From Phyllosticta citribraziliensis (taxonomy: Eukaryota), in contig NW_027117338.1 of assembly GCF_038025025.1 (NCBI RefSeq), positions 992,001 to 1,056,000 on the forward strand: a stretch of 64,000 bases of DNA, read 5' to 3'. Every line of letters begins with the position of its first letter. Position 1 is the stretch's first letter. Positions 53 through 52,503 of the stretch are shown piece by piece. Position numbers and translations under genes: made by a program. Under the pieces are notes generated by a model that did no database searches, was not told the origin of the DNA, and saw nothing but the letters and a program-made list of their open reading frames with translations.

Positions 53-555
53 TCCTCATTGTCCCCAATCTCGTACTCCTGTTAACAACACTGCTTACGG
101 CTCCCTTCACCAATTCGATCTTTCTATGGATCCCAAGGGAAGCCCGTCGCTCCCATGAAAACCTCATGCGTTATCTGAAAACGCTCCCTCAATCAGCCCG
201 CATAGATCTCATCACCATGCGTCTCTCTGGACTGCACAAAACCACGCGCACCACGTTGGGTGAATTGCGCGAGTTCCGCGGCGGTTTTGGTGCTGCAAAC
301 TGGGTTCGCGTTCCTCCCAAAGCTTCAGTCTGGGCGGCAGAAGAGCGGCGAATGAGAATGGGGTTTGGGCAGCGGATCATGGCGCTGTTGAAGGAACCGC
401 GGAACAGATTTGCGATTGACTTGAGAGATGGAAAATCCGGGTCGAGGTCGCGGGTGCCGGGCGTTGTGGAGATAGTGGCACAAAAAGTCAAGAGGAATGG
501 GTTTGTCAAGGCAGGAACCTGGAGTGAGGACTTGAAGAAGGTCTTCAGGGGGTGA
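53..555 (+). CDS. Last exon of a hypothetical protein with a hydrophobic segment; gene starts upstream of the window
   Basis: Branch GCTAAT (38-43) and TAG acceptor at 50-52 precede an open frame (LIVPNLVLLLTTLLTAPFTNSIFLWIP...) ending TGA 555; family not recognised. Confidence 0.65.
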
Positions 556-30990: not shown

Positions 30991-32201
30991 CTATTTCAGG
31001 TACCCGTGCTTCTTGTGGACGTCGATGACCTTCTGGACCTCGTCATGGCTACCCATGAAAATGCCCGATCGGTCGTGGATGTGTTGTGGAACGACTTCGA
31101 GCATCCGCTCCATCTTGCTGTTCACAGCTTGTCCACCGGCTGCCAATCGTCAGTACATGTACATGAGCAGCCTGCGGAGCACTTACCATTCTCGAAAACC
31201 ATGGCCATGGGACCACATTCGTACAAGATTCGCAGCTTGCCCTTGGGGCTCTTCTTGTCGGCTGGATAGGCAAAGATGCCACCATACAGGAGCGTTCGGT
31301 AGGCATCTGCTACCATGGATCCGATATATCTGGCGCTGTAAGGCTTGCCGCCTTCCGTGACCGGGTGCTTCAGGCTGTCGATGTATTCCTTGACAGGCTC
31401 CTCCCAGTACAGGCTGTTGCCCTCATTCACCGAGTAGATGGCGCGTGTCTTCGGGATCCGCATGTTGGGGTGCGTAAGGATAAACTCGCCAAGGGAGCTG
31501 TCGAGGGTGAAGCCGTTGACACCACCACCCTTCATCGTCATGACCAGCTGCGCCGAGGCACCATACATGGTGAATCCACTCGCGACGAGCTCAGTTCCCG
31601 GCTGCAGAATGTCTTCCTTCACCCCCTTTGCGCCCTCGGCAAGTCTGAAGATTGCGAAAATGGTTCCGACTGACACACCCGCGTCCAGGTTGGAGGATCC
31701 GTCGATGGGATCGCACGCGACAGCGTATCTTGCGTCGGGGTATTCCTCGAAGGTGATTGCCTCTTCTTCTTCCTCTGATACGAGCAACCGAACCTTGCCG
31801 CTGCTCCGCATGGCCGAGATGAACAGGTCATTTCCAATAACGTCGAGCTTCTTCTGCTCATCGCCAGTTGTGTTCGAAGATCCCGCCAGACCAGAAAGCT
31901 ATCGGAGCGTCAGCCGACGACCCGGCGGCAGGGAGAGAAGGTGCTTACGTTGATCAGGGAGGCTCTCCGGATGTAGTAGGAAATGCTCTTGAAAGCAAAC
32001 TGCAGTGCGTGGCACAGGAGCCTGCGCCATTGTCAGTCAAGGGAAACACAGGGCCGGGGAGGAGTATGCGCACGTAAAGTCTCCCGTTGCCTCCTTGACC
32101 TTGACTTGCTCCTCGGTCAAGAATCTGGTGATGGTGATGATCTCTGTGTTGATCTTCTCCTGGCCGACAGGGCCGGAGCTGGTTTCGCCATTGGTAGTCA
32201 T
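30991..32201 (-). CDS. FBP1: Fructose-1,6-bisphosphatase, ~353 aa, 4 exons
   Basis: Exons 32201-32074, 32021-31949, 31898-31187, 31139-30991; GDEQKKLDV, DPIDGSSN, ARYIGSMVAD, GKLRILYE. Confidence 0.97.
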
Positions 32202-33532
32202 TTTGAGTGGGAGTAGTTGGTTGCAACGAAGTTGACGAGCGTTGGAGGGGTATCAAGAAAAGGTGGTGGGATGAAGAGGGGTCGTCTGGGGGCAAAGCTG
32301 TTGAAGTAGGCAAGGCTCTCGTCGAAGCTGGACGGCGGATATGAAGTAATGGAGTGGGTACAGCTGGGGTCGGGATCGCGGAGAGTAGCTCGGTCCAGGA
32401 TTTAGGGCTCGTGGTTGGGTCGCTCCTCCTCGGCAACAGTGGGAAAAAGAACGGGTCCCAAAGATCTTCAATTGATGTCACGATGAACTGGCGTGGAGGC
32501 GCTCAAGCTGGATTGGGACCTTGCCACGGCCACGGGCAGCAGATCTATATATGCGTCTGGGTCCTTGGACAGATGGCCCTTGAACGCGCAACGTACATTG
32601 CGCTGCAGTTGCTGATGGCCGAATGAAAGGGTGAGGGGCAACGGAGGCGGGCACGCGGGGTCGCGTCGAGCTTAGAGCTTGAGAAGCTCAGCCGCCACAT
32701 GCGCTCCAGCTCCCGACATCTCCCGCTCGACCGGCGGGCTGGACAGCGGCTTCGAGCCTAGACTGGGGCTTGCCGCCCGTCACGACAACGTCGAAAGTGT
32801 CCTCGTCGCGGAGCGTTCAGGAAAAATACACTCCCGTGTCTTTTCCGAGCTCGGGTGAAGACGAAGCTCGCGCGTTTGGGAGCATCCATGGCCTTCCGTG
32901 TCGGCACGCGTTCGGCGAGGTTTGAGCTGCTTCTGGCCTGGCAGGACGCTCAGGGATAGAGTCAGGAGTGTCCTCGCGGTGAGATTTGGCCGAGGAGCGA
33001 ATGCAAGCAGCTGCAGGGACTGTTGTCTGTCCTTTGGACCTTTTGCGCATTGGCGATGACAAAGGGGGCGGAAAACTCAGAGTGCGGCGTTGGCGAGCAG
33101 GGAGCCAGACAGGCGATGACGCTTGTCATGACCAAGAAGATGGTGTTGAGTCGCAGGCCTGATCAGTAACCAGGCAGGTCGCTGACCTGAAGCGGCCCAG
33201 ACCTGGAAACCCCAGCCCAGGGCAGCCCAGGGCAGCTGGACGGCACCCGACGTCATTGCGTTCCCGATCGGGTGGAGTCTGGGGCGCGGGCGCCGGTCGG
33301 CTTCGGCCCGGGGACGGCGCTGAGTTGGGTTGGGCGACGATTCGCCGCTAAGCGACAGAAATTTGTCCCTCCATCCAACAAAAGTCGTCGACAGACCTAA
33401 CTCTGTCCCTCCCACTCCATCATCCCACCACTCTCACCACAGCAGAGCTCACAATGAAGACGGGCGGCTGAGTGGCTGCTTTGTCGGCGCTGGCCTCACA
33501 GGTAAGACTCCCTCTCCTCTCCCCCCCCCCTG

Positions 33533-33627
33533 CTTCGATGATGAAAAGCAATACCACAATCAAACTAGAGTCTTTGATCTCTATCGAGAAATGAAACTTG
33601 AACTTGCTTGCACGTCAGTCTGAGAAG
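33533..33627 (+). ncRNA. snR78/snR72: Box C/D snoRNA with both snR78-type (D') and snR72-type (D) guides
   Basis: C ATGATGA 33538-33544; guide CAAACTAGAGTC + D' TTGA (25S GACUCUAGUUUG, yeast Um2421); guide TTGCACGTCAG + D CTGA 33620-33623 (25S CUGACGUGCAA, yeast Am876); terminal stem CTTC/GAAG. Confidence 0.9.
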
Positions 33628-33778
33628 TCTCAAAGCCGCCATGTTCATTCAGACATGATGCGACCGCAGCTAACGCCTGTCAAGCAGTCAGACATCCCAT
33701 CTTGCGACTTCGCGACCGTTGCGCGCACCGCCAACTTCCTGTACGTATCTCGACTCCCATCTCTCCCGTCCCACAAGC

Positions 33779-33867
33779 CCACAAGATGATCATCGTGTTT
33801 ACACGCTGGAAATTACCGTCAGAGACCTTCGGGTTTTAGAAGATAACAATAGGCTGTTTCTGAGCAA
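33779..33867 (+). ncRNA. snR77: Box C/D snoRNA snR77 homolog (18S Um578 equivalent)
   Basis: C-like AAGATGA 33783-33789; guide GCTGGAAATTACCG + D' CAGA versus 18S CGGUAAUUCCAGC; D CTGA 33860-33863. Confidence 0.85.
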
Positions 33868-33992
33868 GCTTTTCACACGCGCATTGACATTCATCGCACC
33901 GTTGGACCAGCTGCTAACGGCTCACAGATCTAGGAGCTGAAGGCCTGGTTTCCTTACGGTACGATCTTGCCTTCCCAGCTATTTCGAATCAT

Positions 33993-34080
33993 CTCGAATG
34001 ATGAATGGCACTGGGCTCCGAACAGCATGACGGATACGCCCCATCGCGGCAGGCCTAGAAAACCTCGCCCACTGATCTCG
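33993..34080 (+). ncRNA. snR76: Box C/D snoRNA snR76 homolog (25S Cm2197 equivalent)
   Basis: C ATGATGA 33998-34004; guide GCACTGGGC + D' CCGA versus 25S GCCCAGUGC; internal GGCCTAGAAAAC as in yeast snR76; D CTGA 34072-34075. Confidence 0.88.
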
Positions 34081-34230
34081 CACCGGCACACTCGCTATTT
34101 CAGTATCATGGCTAGTTCTCAAGCTGAGACATGAATTTCAGGCAGCACAATGGCGTTATCACCCAGCATCGCCGTCGATTCTCCCACGAGTGGTAAGTCA
34201 CGAGAGCTTATTTCTTTTCGCAAAACACGA

Positions 34231-34322
34231 CCATCATGATGAACCCTTAGATGACGAGTCTTATCGGGGTTTCCCATGCAGACAACACTTTTTCAAATAC
34301 CATTCATGCCTAACTGAATTTT
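34231..34322 (+). ncRNA. snR75: Box C/D snoRNA snR75 homolog (25S Gm2288 equivalent)
   Basis: C ATGATGA 34236-34242; guide TTAGATGACGAG + D' CTTA versus 25S CUCGUCAUCUAA; second element CCATTCATGC; D CTGA 34314-34317. Confidence 0.9.
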
Positions 34323-34445
34323 CGGTCAAAATCTTGTTGCTTTACTTGGGTCTTTGTCGACGCATTCTAACAAGTCACAGACCCAAACCGCTCCTGTAGT
34401 CGTCGCATTGAAGAGTACGTCTCGCGCCGTCGAAGTCCTTTGAAC

Positions 34446-34527
34446 TCAACATGATGAAACGACATTACAAATTGACAAGCATATGTCCAAGCCCTAGGGC
34501 GAAGACGAGACTGTCTTTTCTGAATCC
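34446..34527 (+). ncRNA. snR74: Box C/D snoRNA snR74 homolog (18S Am28 equivalent)
   Basis: C ATGATGA 34451-34457; guide GACAAGCATATG + D' CCAA versus 18S CAUAUGCUUGUC; hairpin GCCC-TA-GGGC; D CTGA 34520-34523. Confidence 0.9.
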
Positions 34528-34667
34528 ATCACCGAGAGATCAGTCCAGAATGCTGAAAAGGGTTTCTGGGCTAACATGAGACCTCAGGATTTTGAAGAAT
34601 TGGTGGGACCCGAAAAGTCTTCACAACTTCGACAGGTACGTATCCACAACATCATCTTCTCTCCCCT

Positions 34668-34763
34668 TTTACATGATGATTCTTTTTCAATCTCACGACG
34701 GTCGACATAGCCACACGTTGGCATTGATGAGAACGCCCGCTGACACGGGCTTAATCTGAAAAC
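34668..34763 (+). ncRNA. snR73: Box C/D snoRNA snR73 homolog (25S Cm2959 equivalent)
   Basis: C ATGATGA 34673-34679; guide TCTCACGACGGTC + D' CATA versus 25S GACCGUCGUGAGA; C' TTGATGA 34724-34730; hairpin GCCCG-CTGACA-CGGGC; D CTGA 34756-34759. Confidence 0.9.
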
Positions 34764-35465
34764 CATTCATGTCATTACTTGCTTCGAACTCTTTGAGAAT
34801 CTCGCTGACATGTTCTTCAGATCCACCGTCCTTGTGACTTGGTCGCTTCCACGTGTTGGGTTTTTCAATGATCATTTCGCCTTGCGCGGGAGGTTGTAGA
34901 GAAACACGTTGGGTCATGCTCATGGCACTGTTCTTAATGCTTGTGCTGGAGTCATCCAATGTACAAGATCCACGCCATGATACCTTTGCATGCTGCTCGA
35001 GTTTGAATGTTTAGATGTTGGTATTGGCTGCCGCTCTGCACAAAGCAACCAAGATCTATGCTTCCCACGCTGTCTAGCCCCTTGTTCAATGCTGTGTCTA
35101 GCCTGATCGTCCTTCTCCAACGCCACCTTTTTGTACATGACGTAGTTGCTCGTCTCACGGCTCGATCTTTTTGAACACCAATGCCTTGTCCTGCCATAGC
35201 CATTCGCGAGATGACCTTGAGATACTGTCGTGGAGACCCGTTCATTCGCTCTGCGGCCCAAATTATACCATCACGGTGGGTGTCGAAGGAAATGGGACCT
35301 CCTGGCAATGCGAGCGCATCTGGGGGAGAATTCCTTTACTGCCACAGTTGCGTTATGGAGCGTTTAGCTGTAGCTGCGCTCAGGGAGCCGTCACTCATTT
35401 CCGCGGCCACACTCAGGGAGTCTGTCTCATTTCTTTCGACGCCCACTGTGCCATTGCCCATCCCA

Positions 35466-36027: not shown

Positions 36028-37617
36028 ATGCTGAAGATACCCGGCGTGGCATCTGCGACATTATCTCGACACAGCCTTCGAAGTCTTGAACGACGGCTTC
36101 TCATCCCGCACCATGGCATCGTGTTCCAACGAGCCAACTCCAAGTCACCTCAACTTGCGAAGACACGATTAGAGCGAAGGGGATTCGAATTACCAAAACG
36201 CAGCACTGGCTTCGTAGGACAATCAAAACGAAAAGTCAGGACACCTGAGGTTGTGGAGAAAAGACAAGCGCGAAAGTTGAAGAAAAGGGAGCGGGAGGCC
36301 CAATCAGCGCGGGACCGGCAGACACGATCAGAATCACCTGGACATAGGAAAACGAGAGAGTCAGAAAGAGTTGATCTACCAAAACACAGCACTGGCCCCG
36401 TTGCAGGATCAAAATCGAAGGTCACGGCACCTGAGGTTCCGGAGAAAACACAAACACAAAGGTCGAAGAAGCGGGAGCGGGAGGTTCAAAAGTCGACGAA
36501 GCAATCAGTCCAGGGCCGGCAGACACGATCAGAATCATCTGGACATGGGAAAATGAGTGAGGCAGAAGGTTTCAATGTGCCAATCAGACGTGTCAATGGG
36601 GAAATTTTTGGAAGACATAAATTACTCGAACAAGGGTTAGATGTAGATGTGCCAATTCGCCAACTCGACCCATACTGGAAGAAAGACCCCCCTCAGAGTA
36701 CACGGCTCGGACATATACGAAATCCCGATTTCCCAAGACCCAACGAGCCGCACTTTTACGTCGACACAGCTCCACCTTCCGATGATCAGCTGCGAGATGC
36801 CCGACCGTTCTTCCTAAACACGATTCCCAAGTTCGCCTTTTCATGCAGCCACTTCGCCGACTTTCCAAAGAGCGACGTCCCCGAATTCGCCTTCATCGGC
36901 CGCAGCAACGTGGGGAAAAGCAGCCTGTTGAACGCCCTATTCTACGGTCACTCTTACAACAAGCAGCAGGAAAAGGAGCTGGCAAGAGTTGGGGCACGCG
37001 CAGGACTGACGAAGCTCATGAATGTCTTTCTGGCGGGCGACATAGACGGCGGCACCGAGATCAAACAACACAATGGAAAAAAGAGGACAGAGCGGTGGAT
37101 CAGGGCCGGACGCGGTATTGCCATTGTTGACATGCCTGGTTACGGCTTTGGAAGTCACGATTCCCAAGGCGAAGAGATAATCAAGTACCTGTCGCGGCGA
37201 ACACAACTGCGGCGGACTTTTGTTCTGATCAACGGCGAACACGGGCCGACGAATCTCGACTTGGAAATGTTCAAAATCATGGCGCAGGCGGGAATATCGT
37301 ACCAGATAGTCTTGACCAAGACGGACAAGTGCTTGAGCCCGGGGAATGATATCCCCTCGGTCATCCGGCTCAGATACGGGCTGGAGCTGTTGCAACGGAC
37401 CAAGTCACAGCTTGACGAGATGGTCAAGCCGCCTCTGAGAGACGTCCTGTGCGTCAGTGCGGAAAAGTCCCTCTACTCGGAAGGACGATCCAAGAATGAT
37501 ATGATTGGCATGAATGCGCTGCGCTTGGCCATGTTGCAAGCTGCCTCGATGGCCCGGGAAGAACCCCTTCCACTACCCATCGCCAAGATTGACCCAAAGG
37601 AAAATATGAGGAAATAG
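36028..37617 (+). CDS. EngB/YihA-family GTPase, probably mitochondrial (Mrx8/GTPBP8-like)
   Basis: G1 GRSNVGKSS, G2 AGLTK, G3 DMPGYG, G4 TKTD, G5 VSA; Arg/Ser/Leu-rich N-terminus; head-to-head with FMC1. Confidence 0.88.
   Translation: MLKIPGVASATLSRHSLRSLERRLLIPHHGIVFQRANSKSPQLAKTRLERRGFELPKRSTGFVGQSKRKVRTPEVVEKRQARKLKKREREAQSARDRQTRSESPGHRKTRESERVDLPKHSTGPVAGSKSKVTAPEVPEKTQTQRSKKREREVQKSTKQSVQGRQTRSESSGHGKMSEAEGFNVPIRRVNGEIFGRHKLLEQGLDVDVPIRQLDPYWKKDPPQSTRLGHIRNPDFPRPNEPHFYVDTAPPSDDQLRDARPFFLNTIPKFAFSCSHFADFPKSDVPEFAFIGRSNVGKSSLLNALFYGHSYNKQQEKELARVGARAGLTKLMNVFLAGDIDGGTEIKQHNGKKRTERWIRAGRGIAIVDMPGYGFGSHDSQGEEIIKYLSRRTQLRRTFVLINGEHGPTNLDLEMFKIMAQAGISYQIVLTKTDKCLSPGNDIPSVIRLRYGLELLQRTKSQLDEMVKPPLRDVLCVSAEKSLYSEGRSKNDMIGMNALRLAMLQAASMAREEPLPLPIAKIDPKENMRK
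36191..36578 (+). repeat. Intragenic tandem duplication (~186-200 nt unit) in the EngB N-terminal extension
   Basis: TACCAAAAC(G/A)CAGCACTGGC at 36191 and 36377; both units contain CACCTGAGGTT, GGGAGCGGGAGG and CCGGCAGACACGATCAGAATCA. Confidence 0.9.
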
Positions 37618-51712: not shown

Positions 51713-52503
51713 GTTGGCAGTGCAATTGAATGCGAGTCTTGATCTTCACATCAAACGCCCCCGTGTGCCAGTCGGACCGACCCCTGCCTATCCCTTCTGA
51801 ACCCCACTCAAAAGCGAAATCCTCCACCACACTGAAATGTCAAAAGGGTTGAACGCTGGCTTCATGGTCGCTGTGTCAAATGGCTGCTCTTTGATGTCTG
51901 CCGCCGTGTCGGCTGGTCGCTCCCAAGTTTCAGACATGCCGTTTTGTTCAACACCAACTATTCTGGTCCACGCCCACAAAAAGACAAAACGTACAACAGC
52001 CGGGATTCGCTGCTGGTCACCCACGCAACTACTAATCGGCCGCAAGGTAGCTTATCTATGGAAGAGCGGACGGGGTTCCGAGTTTTCTACCTGCTATGGT
52101 CGTACGTGGAAGTTATGGTTACTTTTTTGCACTATATTCAACACACACGTAATGGTGCGAGACATCAACAACGTTCTGGACGACGTCGTTCTTGAAGGGC
52201 ACCTATTCGCGTCTCAAAACGATGGCTACCAGACTGTGCAAGAGCCAATGGTGCGAAAGCGTTGAAGGTGCGACGAAAACGTTTGTCGAGGCTACGGCCA
52301 TGACGGCGTCATGATTTTGTTGGCCTTCCTGGTCCTTCTTGCTTGTCCATTGACTGCTTCCCATCTCCACTCTTGCAGAGCCCGAAAGCTTGAAGAGTTC
52401 TTGTGGGCCCGGGGAGACGATTTCTTCGTGTGCTGCAGTCCACGATATTTCGGTGAATCTTTCTCACGGGCCCGTAGATCTTCTGGATGCCGGGGATTTT
52501 CTC

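Follow-up and report, generated by a model that had tools for sequence, protein, structure and literature searches.

In Saccharomyces cerevisiae, the box C/D small nucleolar RNAs (snoRNAs) snR78 to snR72 come from an unspliced transcript that is cut by Rnt1p, as Donovan et al. report in the part of their paper available to us (PMC5033589). In Neurospora crassa, the same six functions all lie on chromosome VI, CD5 is a double guide that serves for both yeast snR72 and snR78, and the cluster's host is a UHG-like gene that was verified by reverse transcription PCR (RT-PCR) and is alternatively spliced (PMC2780460, 2009; also available in part). Luo et al. (2013) found that all snoRNAs of ‘snoRNA gene cluster I’ are intronic in Euascomycetes, that the snR78/72 intron is a recombinant present throughout Euascomycetes and in Y. 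lipolytica, and that the host RNAs, once spliced, show little conservation and have no long open reading frames (ORFs) (PMC3596301), and Canzler et al. (2018) found the order and the length of about 1.5 kb conserved throughout Ascomycota (PMC5824354). PMC3596301 and the accessible part of PMC5033589 define a form of the cluster in which snR72 has merged with snR78 in intron 1 and no longer stands as a snoRNA of its own at the 3′ end. Here we describe the corresponding locus, at positions 33421-34900 of a 64,000-nucleotide (nt) stretch of Phyllosticta citribraziliensis DNA (contig NW_027117338.1, positions 992,001 to 1,056,000, forward strand; hereafter the window).

This locus is very probably the Pezizomycotina orthologue of cluster I (yeast snR78-snR72): a spliced, non-coding host gene with six intronic box C/D snoRNAs, here called sno1 to sno6 (Table 1). 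It agrees with fungal cluster I in its order, 78(/72)-77-76-75-74-73, its length of about 1.5 kb, its intronic snoRNAs, the merging of snR72 into the snR78 intron and its poorly conserved exons; we found no differences from the cluster as surveyed (PMC3596301, PMC5824354). Set beside the N. crassa cluster as that is described, it shares the six functions including the snR78 and snR72 double guide, one snoRNA per intron, short ORFs, canonical splice signals and a UHG/GAS5-like host. It differs in the guide of sno2, which has a bulging extra A, whereas a 13/0 match to 18S ribosomal RNA (rRNA) is given for its N. crassa counterpart, CD24; the D guide of CD24 is also assigned a target in U5 small nuclear RNA (PMC2780460, as far as its available portions go).

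With the S. cerevisiae cluster, the locus has in common the snoRNA families, their order, their rRNA targets and the extra rRNA-pairing element of snR75 (PMC3116282, available in part). However, the yeast cluster consists of seven separate snoRNAs, is intron-less and is cut by Rnt1p (PMC5033589, available portions), whereas the locus in the window has six snoRNAs that would be released by splicing, with the snR72 guide carried on the first. The vertebrate UHG and GAS5 genes are also multi-intron non-coding hosts, each intron holding a single box C/D snoRNA some 50 nt 5′ of the branch point, but they are not homologous genes and carry another set of snoRNAs.

An earlier account of this DNA, made from its letters without database searches (hereafter the sequence-only reading), had called the yeast cluster intronless and Rnt1-cut, in agreement with the available text of PMC5033589, and had mentioned intronic versions in other filamentous fungi; such versions are indeed published for N. 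crassa and Pezizomycotina (PMC2780460, in its available part, PMC3596301, PMC5824354). The locus is real and was correctly interpreted, and it is an orthologue of a published, clade-wide system, not a discovery. Papers that appeared between 2009 and 2018 had already described its organization, the fusion of the snR78 and snR72 guides and the non-coding host, and the locus opens no new question. Its value lies mainly in annotation: protein-centred gene calling leaves 1.5 kb blank despite six snoRNAs that are predicted to guide seven conserved rRNA methylations. It is also a clean example of a known contrast, between a splicing-dependent intronic cluster in filamentous fungi and an intron-less polycistron cut by Rnt1 in S. 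cerevisiae.

Table 1. The snoRNA host gene, its introns and snoRNAs, and other genes of the window (positions are those of the window; the relative is the organism carried by sequencing run X4)
Feature	Position	Strand	Details
Exon 1 of host	33421..33501	+	Relative's RNA contig aligns from 33427 up to the intron 1 donor; 5′ end unmapped
Intron 1, 186 nt	33502..33687	+	GTAAGA...CTAAC...CAG; relative's RNA contig skips exactly 186 nt, GT..AG ends
sno1, predicted double guide (snR78 + snR72 functions; N. crassa CD5 type)	33534..33627	+	C 33538-33544, D′ TTGA 33574-33577, D CTGA 33620-33623
Exon 2, 53 nt	33688..33740	+	Aligned block 33685-33740 in the relative's spliced RNA contig, 3 ambiguous junction bases
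Intron 2, 187 nt	33741..33927	+	GTACGT...CTAAC...CAG; missing from X4 record 9 (53 letters between 33740 and 34158)
sno2, snR77 orthologue (Rfam Afu_300)	33779..33865	+	C AAGATGA 33783-33789, D′ CAGA 33820-33823, D CTGA 33860-33863
Exon 3, 31 nt	33928..33958	+	From intron 2 acceptor to GTACGA donor; no direct RNA contig alignment
Intron 3, 183 nt	33959..34141	+	GTACGA...CTGAG...CAG; missing from X4 record 9
sno3, snR76 orthologue (Rfam Afu_513)	33994..34077	+	C 33998-34004, D′ CCGA 34018-34021, D CTGA 34072-34075
Exon 4, 51 nt	34142..34192	+	X4 records 9 and 10 align to 34192, the base preceding the GTAAGT donor
Intron 4, 188 nt	34193..34380	+	GTAAGT...CTAAC...CAG; no cleanly spliced contig among the runs compared
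sno4, snR75 orthologue	34234..34319	+	C 34236-34242, D′ CTTA 34260-34263, extra rRNA-pairing element 34300-34309, D CTGA 34314-34317
Exon 5, 34 nt	34381..34414	+	From CAG acceptor to GTACGT donor
Intron 5, 173 nt	34415..34587	+	GTACGT...CTAAC...CAG; contigs unspliced only (X4 record 11, X2 record 7, X1 record 3)
sno5, putative snR74 type (N. crassa CD21 type)	34447..34527	+	C 34451-34457, inferred D′ CCAA 34487-34490, D CTGA 34520-34523
Exon 6, 48 nt	34588..34635	+	From CAG acceptor to GTACGT donor
Intron 6, 185 nt	34636..34820	+	GTACGT...CTGAC...CAG; contigs unspliced only (X4 record 12, X1 record 3)
sno6, probable snR73 / SNORD35 orthologue	34669..34763	+	C 34673-34679, D′ CATA 34706-34709, C′ TGATGA 34725-34730, D CTGA 34756-34759
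Last exon, start	34821..34900	+	Stop of the 67-codon ORF near 34899; 3′ end unmapped, before about 35000
Fructose-1,6-bisphosphatase gene, ORF piece	31122-31898	-	Pfam FBPase 4.2e-57, FBPase_C 2.3e-31; upstream of the + strand host, divergent
MMR_HSR1-type GTPase gene, 529-codon ORF	36028-37617	+	MMR_HSR1 domain 2e-11; downstream of host
5S rRNA gene, solitary, unlinked to other rRNA genes in the window	51988-52107	-	Rfam, 85.8 bits
tRNA gene in which a 33-nt block, a presumed intron, follows the anticodon loop	7294-7399	+	Rfam, 47.9 bits

Six box C/D units and their families

Every intron has a single C box and, as its terminal D box, a single CTGA; the C-to-D spans are 73-87 nt. The C box reads ATGATGA in five of the six units and AAGATGA in sno2, and sno1 has a terminal stem, CUUC/GAAG. 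A scan of the whole 64-kb window with Rfam models at the gathering threshold returned five matches, three of which lie in this locus and cover precisely the spans given for sno4, sno3 and sno2 in Table 1. The snR75 model matches sno4 over its full length (84.6 bits against a gathering score of 40, E 8.7e-16), Afu_513 matches sno3 (80.3 bits, gathering 48) and Afu_300 matches sno2 (73.9 bits, gathering 40); over the whole 64 kb, the E values of these three range from 1e-12 to 1e-16.

The other units score lower. A permissive scan of positions 33200-35200, with E up to 10, gave 11 matches, and it placed snoR118 over the Afu_513 unit and snoR77Y over the Afu_300 unit. SNORD35 matches sno6 at 34674-34762 with 31.3 bits, under the gathering score of 36 (E 1.2e-4 over these 2 kb, 0.0039 over all 64 kb). 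Two models pick out different halves of sno1, both below gathering: snR78 matches its D′ guide (24.8 bits, gathering 48; E 0.58) and snoZ122 its D guide (23 bits). A HOTAIRM1 match at 34508-34562 was set aside as noise. Judged from the sequence, three units are certain by curated models, two are weakly supported by them, and sno5 is assigned by its anatomy and its guide; its position inside the intron agrees with that of the other five units. The expectation, carried over from the sequence-only reading, that Rfam would recognize these snoRNAs therefore held at gathering level for half of the units, and not for sno1, sno5 and sno6.

Taken together, Rfam names and guide targets give the order snR78(+72)-77-76-75-74-73, all on one strand. 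Both this order and the presence of one C...D′...D unit in every intron had been read correctly from the letters. A repeat search found no direct repeats linking the six units beyond the box motifs; the units are thus distinct genes that did not arise by recent duplication of one another. No seventh unit appeared 3′ of intron 6 in the permissive Rfam scan. RNA folding showed no unusual stability in any of the six (z -1.9 to +0.9), as is expected for box C/D RNAs, and was not used as evidence. The matches to the Afu_ models and the fused first snoRNA place the organism in Pezizomycotina.

Guide elements and their predicted rRNA targets

To locate the guides on rRNA, we collected eukaryotic ribosomal DNA (rDNA) from metagenome contigs with a pattern made of the complements of two conserved elements of the snR75 unit, 5-25 nt apart. 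This gave at least 97 loci, and many of the 97 listed contain incomplete rDNA. In L003 and L068, two loci of full length, cmscan placed the small-subunit (SSU), 5.8S and large-subunit (LSU) rRNAs. The fifth-nucleotide rule was applied with the boxes as placed, and the positions below are those of L003, a eukaryote whose numbering is not yeast's. The metagenome contig that holds the complete L003 rDNA unit also carries a tRNA gene (218-288, minus strand, 70.3 bits).

Seven guide elements were located on these two rDNAs, as anticipated by the claim that the guides are complementary to conserved rRNA. The D′ guide of sno1 pairs over 13 nt in L068 and 9 nt in L003, with a U at LSU 2421 as its target, and its D guide pairs over 11 nt in both, with an A at LSU 894. 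This is the double guide implied in the sequence-only reading, in which D′ pairs with the snR78 site and D with the snR72 site. The D′ guide of sno2 forms 9 bp (one of them G-U), then a bulged A, then 5 bp, and its target is a U at SSU 568; that of sno3 forms nine Watson-Crick pairs and one G-U and targets a C at LSU 2197. Longer pairings are made by the D′ guides of sno4 (12 nt; G at LSU 2288), sno5 (34474-34485, 12 nt to SSU 25-36; A at SSU 28) and sno6 (13 nt to LSU 2955-2967; C at LSU 2957).

Exact targets are held by 5 (sno1 D′), 51 (sno1 D), 74 (sno3), 18 (sno5) and 31 (sno6) of the 97 listed loci. The 12-nt guide of sno4 and its 10-nt second element match the LSU about 10-20 nt apart in all 97 listed loci, by construction; because the loci were collected with its complement, this support for the sno4 D′ guide is circular. 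Such an arrangement of a guide with extra base pairing has been demonstrated experimentally for yeast snR75 (PMC3116282, available part).

These positions agree with sites known from other fungi. In yeast, snR78 is assigned to 25S-2421 through its D′ guide and snR72 to 25S-876 through its D guide (PMC5824354), and snR75 and snR76 to L2288 and L2197 (PMC3116282, in the portions available). In N. crassa, CD21 is assigned to 18S-Am28 (snR74), CD24 to 18S-Um575 (snR77) and CD31 to 26S-Cm2917 (snR73), according to the available part of PMC2780460. The seven sites proposed earlier on the fifth-nucleotide rule stand as regards the nucleotides themselves (in the metagenomic rDNA these are U, A, U, C, G, A and C, each falling on the conserved site that was anticipated); four of the proposed yeast numbers (2421, 876, 2288 and 2197) are confirmed in these papers, and U578, A28 and C2959 are matched through the N. 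crassa equivalents only.

As a control, we took as pseudo-guides the 16 nt 5′ of all remaining CTGA motifs on either strand of the window (n=524) and scored them by their longest perfect antisense match to the L003 rRNAs. The control was restricted to the rRNAs because 12-mers can match by chance in a 12-kb locus; a 12-nt match of the sno1 D′ region in L003 falls in spacer, about 550 nt past the LSU, and was rejected as a chance match. The longest match was at most 7 nt in 317 pseudo-guides, 8 nt in 154, 9 nt in 39 and 10 nt in 14, and none of the 524 reached 11 nt. By the same measure, four of the real guides reach 11 nt (sno1 D), 12 nt (sno4 D′ and sno5 D′) and 13 nt (sno6 D′), and the other three reach 9 nt (sno1 D′ and sno3 D′) and 8 nt (sno2 D′). 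The D-side regions of sno2, sno3, sno5 and sno6, which we read as non-guides, score 7 in the L003 comparison.

The sno2 guide (33805-33818) is unusual in having one extra A relative to 18S rRNA. Its perfect 14-nt complement occurs in none of the 97 listed loci; with the extra base left out, 21 of them hold it. The extra A is also part of the consensus of Afu_300, the Rfam model of the Aspergillus family, and is not found in plant snoR77Y. Because of this bulged A and the absence of a perfect complement from all listed loci, the geometry of sno2 on 18S rRNA, or its true primary target, might be different from the textbook case.

How the locus would work can be proposed by analogy with the literature on these families. 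RNA polymerase II would transcribe about 1.5 kb into an RNA that codes for little or nothing, and this RNA would be spliced at six introns. The excised introns would be debranched, and exonucleases would trim them to the assembled box C/D ribonucleoprotein (snoRNP), leaving six snoRNAs of about 75-95 nt. Each snoRNA is predicted to pair with pre-rRNA through the 9-13 nt directly 5′ of D′, and sno1 also through those 5′ of D, so that the Nop1/fibrillarin methyltransferase could 2′-O-methylate the rRNA nucleotide that faces the guide's fifth nucleotide. The predicted yeast-equivalent sites are 25S U2421 and A876 for sno1, 25S C2197 for sno3, 25S G2288 for sno4, where the second 10-nt rRNA-pairing element would assist, and 18S A28 for sno5; for sno2 and sno6 they would be what we take to be 18S U578 and 25S C2959 in yeast numbering.

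Splicing and coding capacity of the host RNA

Reading positions 33000-35400 and scanning the plus strand for splice motifs gave six introns, the same six and with the same lengths as in the sequence-only reading (introns of 173-188 nt, exons of 31-53 nt). Donor, branch and acceptor signals are present in all six, and each intron contains one snoRNA. Four introns have the branch site CTAAC, intron 6 has CTGAC and intron 3 has CTGAG, in each case 10-14 nt 5′ of the YAG acceptor. The spacing is very regular: 36-43 nt from donor to C box, 61-66 nt from D box to acceptor and 49-54 nt from D box to branch A. The N. crassa study treats such spacing as important for how intronic snoRNAs are processed (PMC2780460, available part). 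Exon 1 contains a C/T-rich tract and an ATG-initiated ORF of 5 codons. A 19-nt direct repeat (33354-33372 and 33394-33412, 79% identity, 40 nt apart), which ends in GTCCCTCC, lies directly 5′ of the first RNA-aligned base, 33427, and may be a promoter element.

We compared four of five listed sequencing runs (X1, X2, X4 and X5), all of them in the form of assembled contigs, with the locus. X4, a ‘plant metagenome’, is the only one on record as RNA sequencing; it carries a relative at 90-95% identity, and X1 and X2 match at ≥99% identity. One X4 contig (record 9, 217 nt, depth 15.4) joins 33427-33498 to 33685-33740 and so skips 186 nt, which, after allowing for a 3-base ambiguity, has GT..AG ends and is intron 1. 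Beyond 33740, the predicted end of exon 2, the contig has 53 unaligned letters, followed by 34158-34192. The genome has 417 nt in this interval, therefore introns 2 and 3 and their snoRNAs are missing from the relative's RNA; exon 3 and the start of exon 4 are expected to give 47 nt, and exons 3-4 of the relative's contig are too diverged to align at 90%. Introns 1-3 are thus spliced out in the relative, and we infer the same for introns 4-6. For introns 1-3 this accords with the claim that these snoRNAs are released by splicing; introns 4-6 are represented by unspliced contigs only.

These unspliced contigs could also be read differently, with an endonuclease cutting the snoRNAs from an unspliced polycistron in an Rnt1-like manner and the splice-site-like motifs as relics. 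The S. cerevisiae cluster operates in this way (PMC5033589, available part), and contigs do run unspliced through introns 5 and 6 (X1 record 3, X2 record 7, X4 records 11 and 12); however, pre-RNA or contaminating DNA would yield such contigs anyway. Relics would also have to account for six units that all retain donor, branch and acceptor at fixed distances from the snoRNA, and for an RNA contig of the relative from which introns 1-3 are missing, intron 1 with exact GT..AG ends. The introns of N. crassa and other Euascomycetes, moreover, have been verified by RT-PCR and expressed sequence tags (PMC2780460, as far as available, PMC3596301). We consider an unspliced polycistron extremely unlikely, and return to the spliced host.

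In a second X4 contig (record 10, depth 8.6), 34192 is followed by 15 unplaced letters and these by 34301-34322, in the 3′ half of the snR75 unit, so that the joint leads from the end of exon 4 to about 34282-34301. This joint is either a cryptic acceptor inside snR75 or an assembly artefact. One could suppose that the host transcript is more than a passive carrier and that the set of snoRNAs produced could be adjusted through the choice of splice sites; such a joint would destroy the snR75 snoRNA, and introns 5-6 occur in unspliced contigs only. Exon skipping and a comparable splice within snR78, which destroys that snoRNA, have been reported in Candida and N. crassa, the snR78 case in Candida (PMC5033589, available portion). 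We regard this supposition, together with the idea that sno2 is atypical in its 18S geometry or primary target, as improbable.

The spliced model (33400-35000 minus introns) is 499 nt long, and its first ORF is the one of 5 codons in exon 1. Its longest ORF has 67 codons; it begins with the ATG at 34150 in exon 4, runs through exons 4-7 and ends near 34899. The host might be a protein-coding gene in which this ORF encodes a small protein and the snoRNAs ride in the introns. In line with this, the ORF stops close to the end position that the sequence-only reading gave for the locus, and the deletions that the relative in X5 has in exon 4 (2 nt at 34163 and 1 nt at 34179) total 3 nt. However, 67 codons are unremarkable for an RNA of about 500 nt, and the 5-codon ORF lies upstream. 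N. crassa hosts that were judged non-coding carry ORFs of 159-267 bp, a range that includes the length found here (PMC2780460, available part). Spliced host RNAs are poorly conserved across fungi (PMC3596301), the X4 relative's divergence in exons 3-4 also argues against a coding host, and in X5 there are indels of 1-2 nt in exons 2 and 4. A coding host is very unlikely on these grounds, and the sequence-only reading's description of an apparently non-coding host stands.

Several observations weigh against a spliced, non-coding host of six snoRNAs. First, the only spliced contig comes from a 90-95% identical relative, not from this organism; the runs compared gave no spliced contig for introns 4-6, and several contigs are unspliced there. 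X1 and X2, at ≥99% identity, likewise contain no spliced contig; their lack of cover over 33204-34213 is uninformative either way. Second, the guides were compared with metagenomic rDNA of other eukaryotes, and the sno1 D′ guide extends to just 9 nt in L003. The pairing of sno2 and sno3 falls within the range of the control pseudo-guides, and these two rest on family homology. Third, the D′ boxes are degenerate in all six units (TTGA, CAGA, CCGA, CTTA, CCAA and CATA in sno1 to sno6). For this reason, the exact target nucleotides of sno5 and sno6 depend on box placement; divergence of D′ boxes is reported as tolerated (PMC3116282, available part). Fourth, sno5 has no Rfam match at E up to 10, and no terminal stem was found in it by eye; its predicted fold joins just five bases of the C box to the 3′ flank and gives no terminal stem of the box C/D kind. 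Finally, one point in favour of the six snoRNAs is a partial count and a hint only: the differences listed for the relative in X5 within 33421-34900 number 22, comprising 16 substitutions and 6 indels, and all 22 lie outside the six C-to-D bodies (33% of the length), with 88 further differences beyond those listed.

Neighbouring genes and other features of the window

Some general-purpose scans of the window added little. ARAGORN, run in its bacterial setting, reported no tRNA and missed the one found by Rfam, and a scan for bacterial-type promoters and terminators found 2 against 1.4 expected, which is irrelevant for a eukaryotic locus.

The snoRNA host lies between a fructose-1,6-bisphosphatase (FBPase) gene and a GTPase gene (Table 1). 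On the FBPase side, a 768-nt X1 contig of very high word depth (4794) extends to 33115, a long way upstream of that gene's coding portion. This suggests either that the 5′ untranslated region of FBPase is long or that another transcript lies here, and that the gene and the snoRNA host share some 300 bp of promoter region. On the other side, the next gene's RNA contigs start at 35002 in X2 and at 35108 in X1, so the GTPase transcript probably starts about 1 kb upstream of its ORF.

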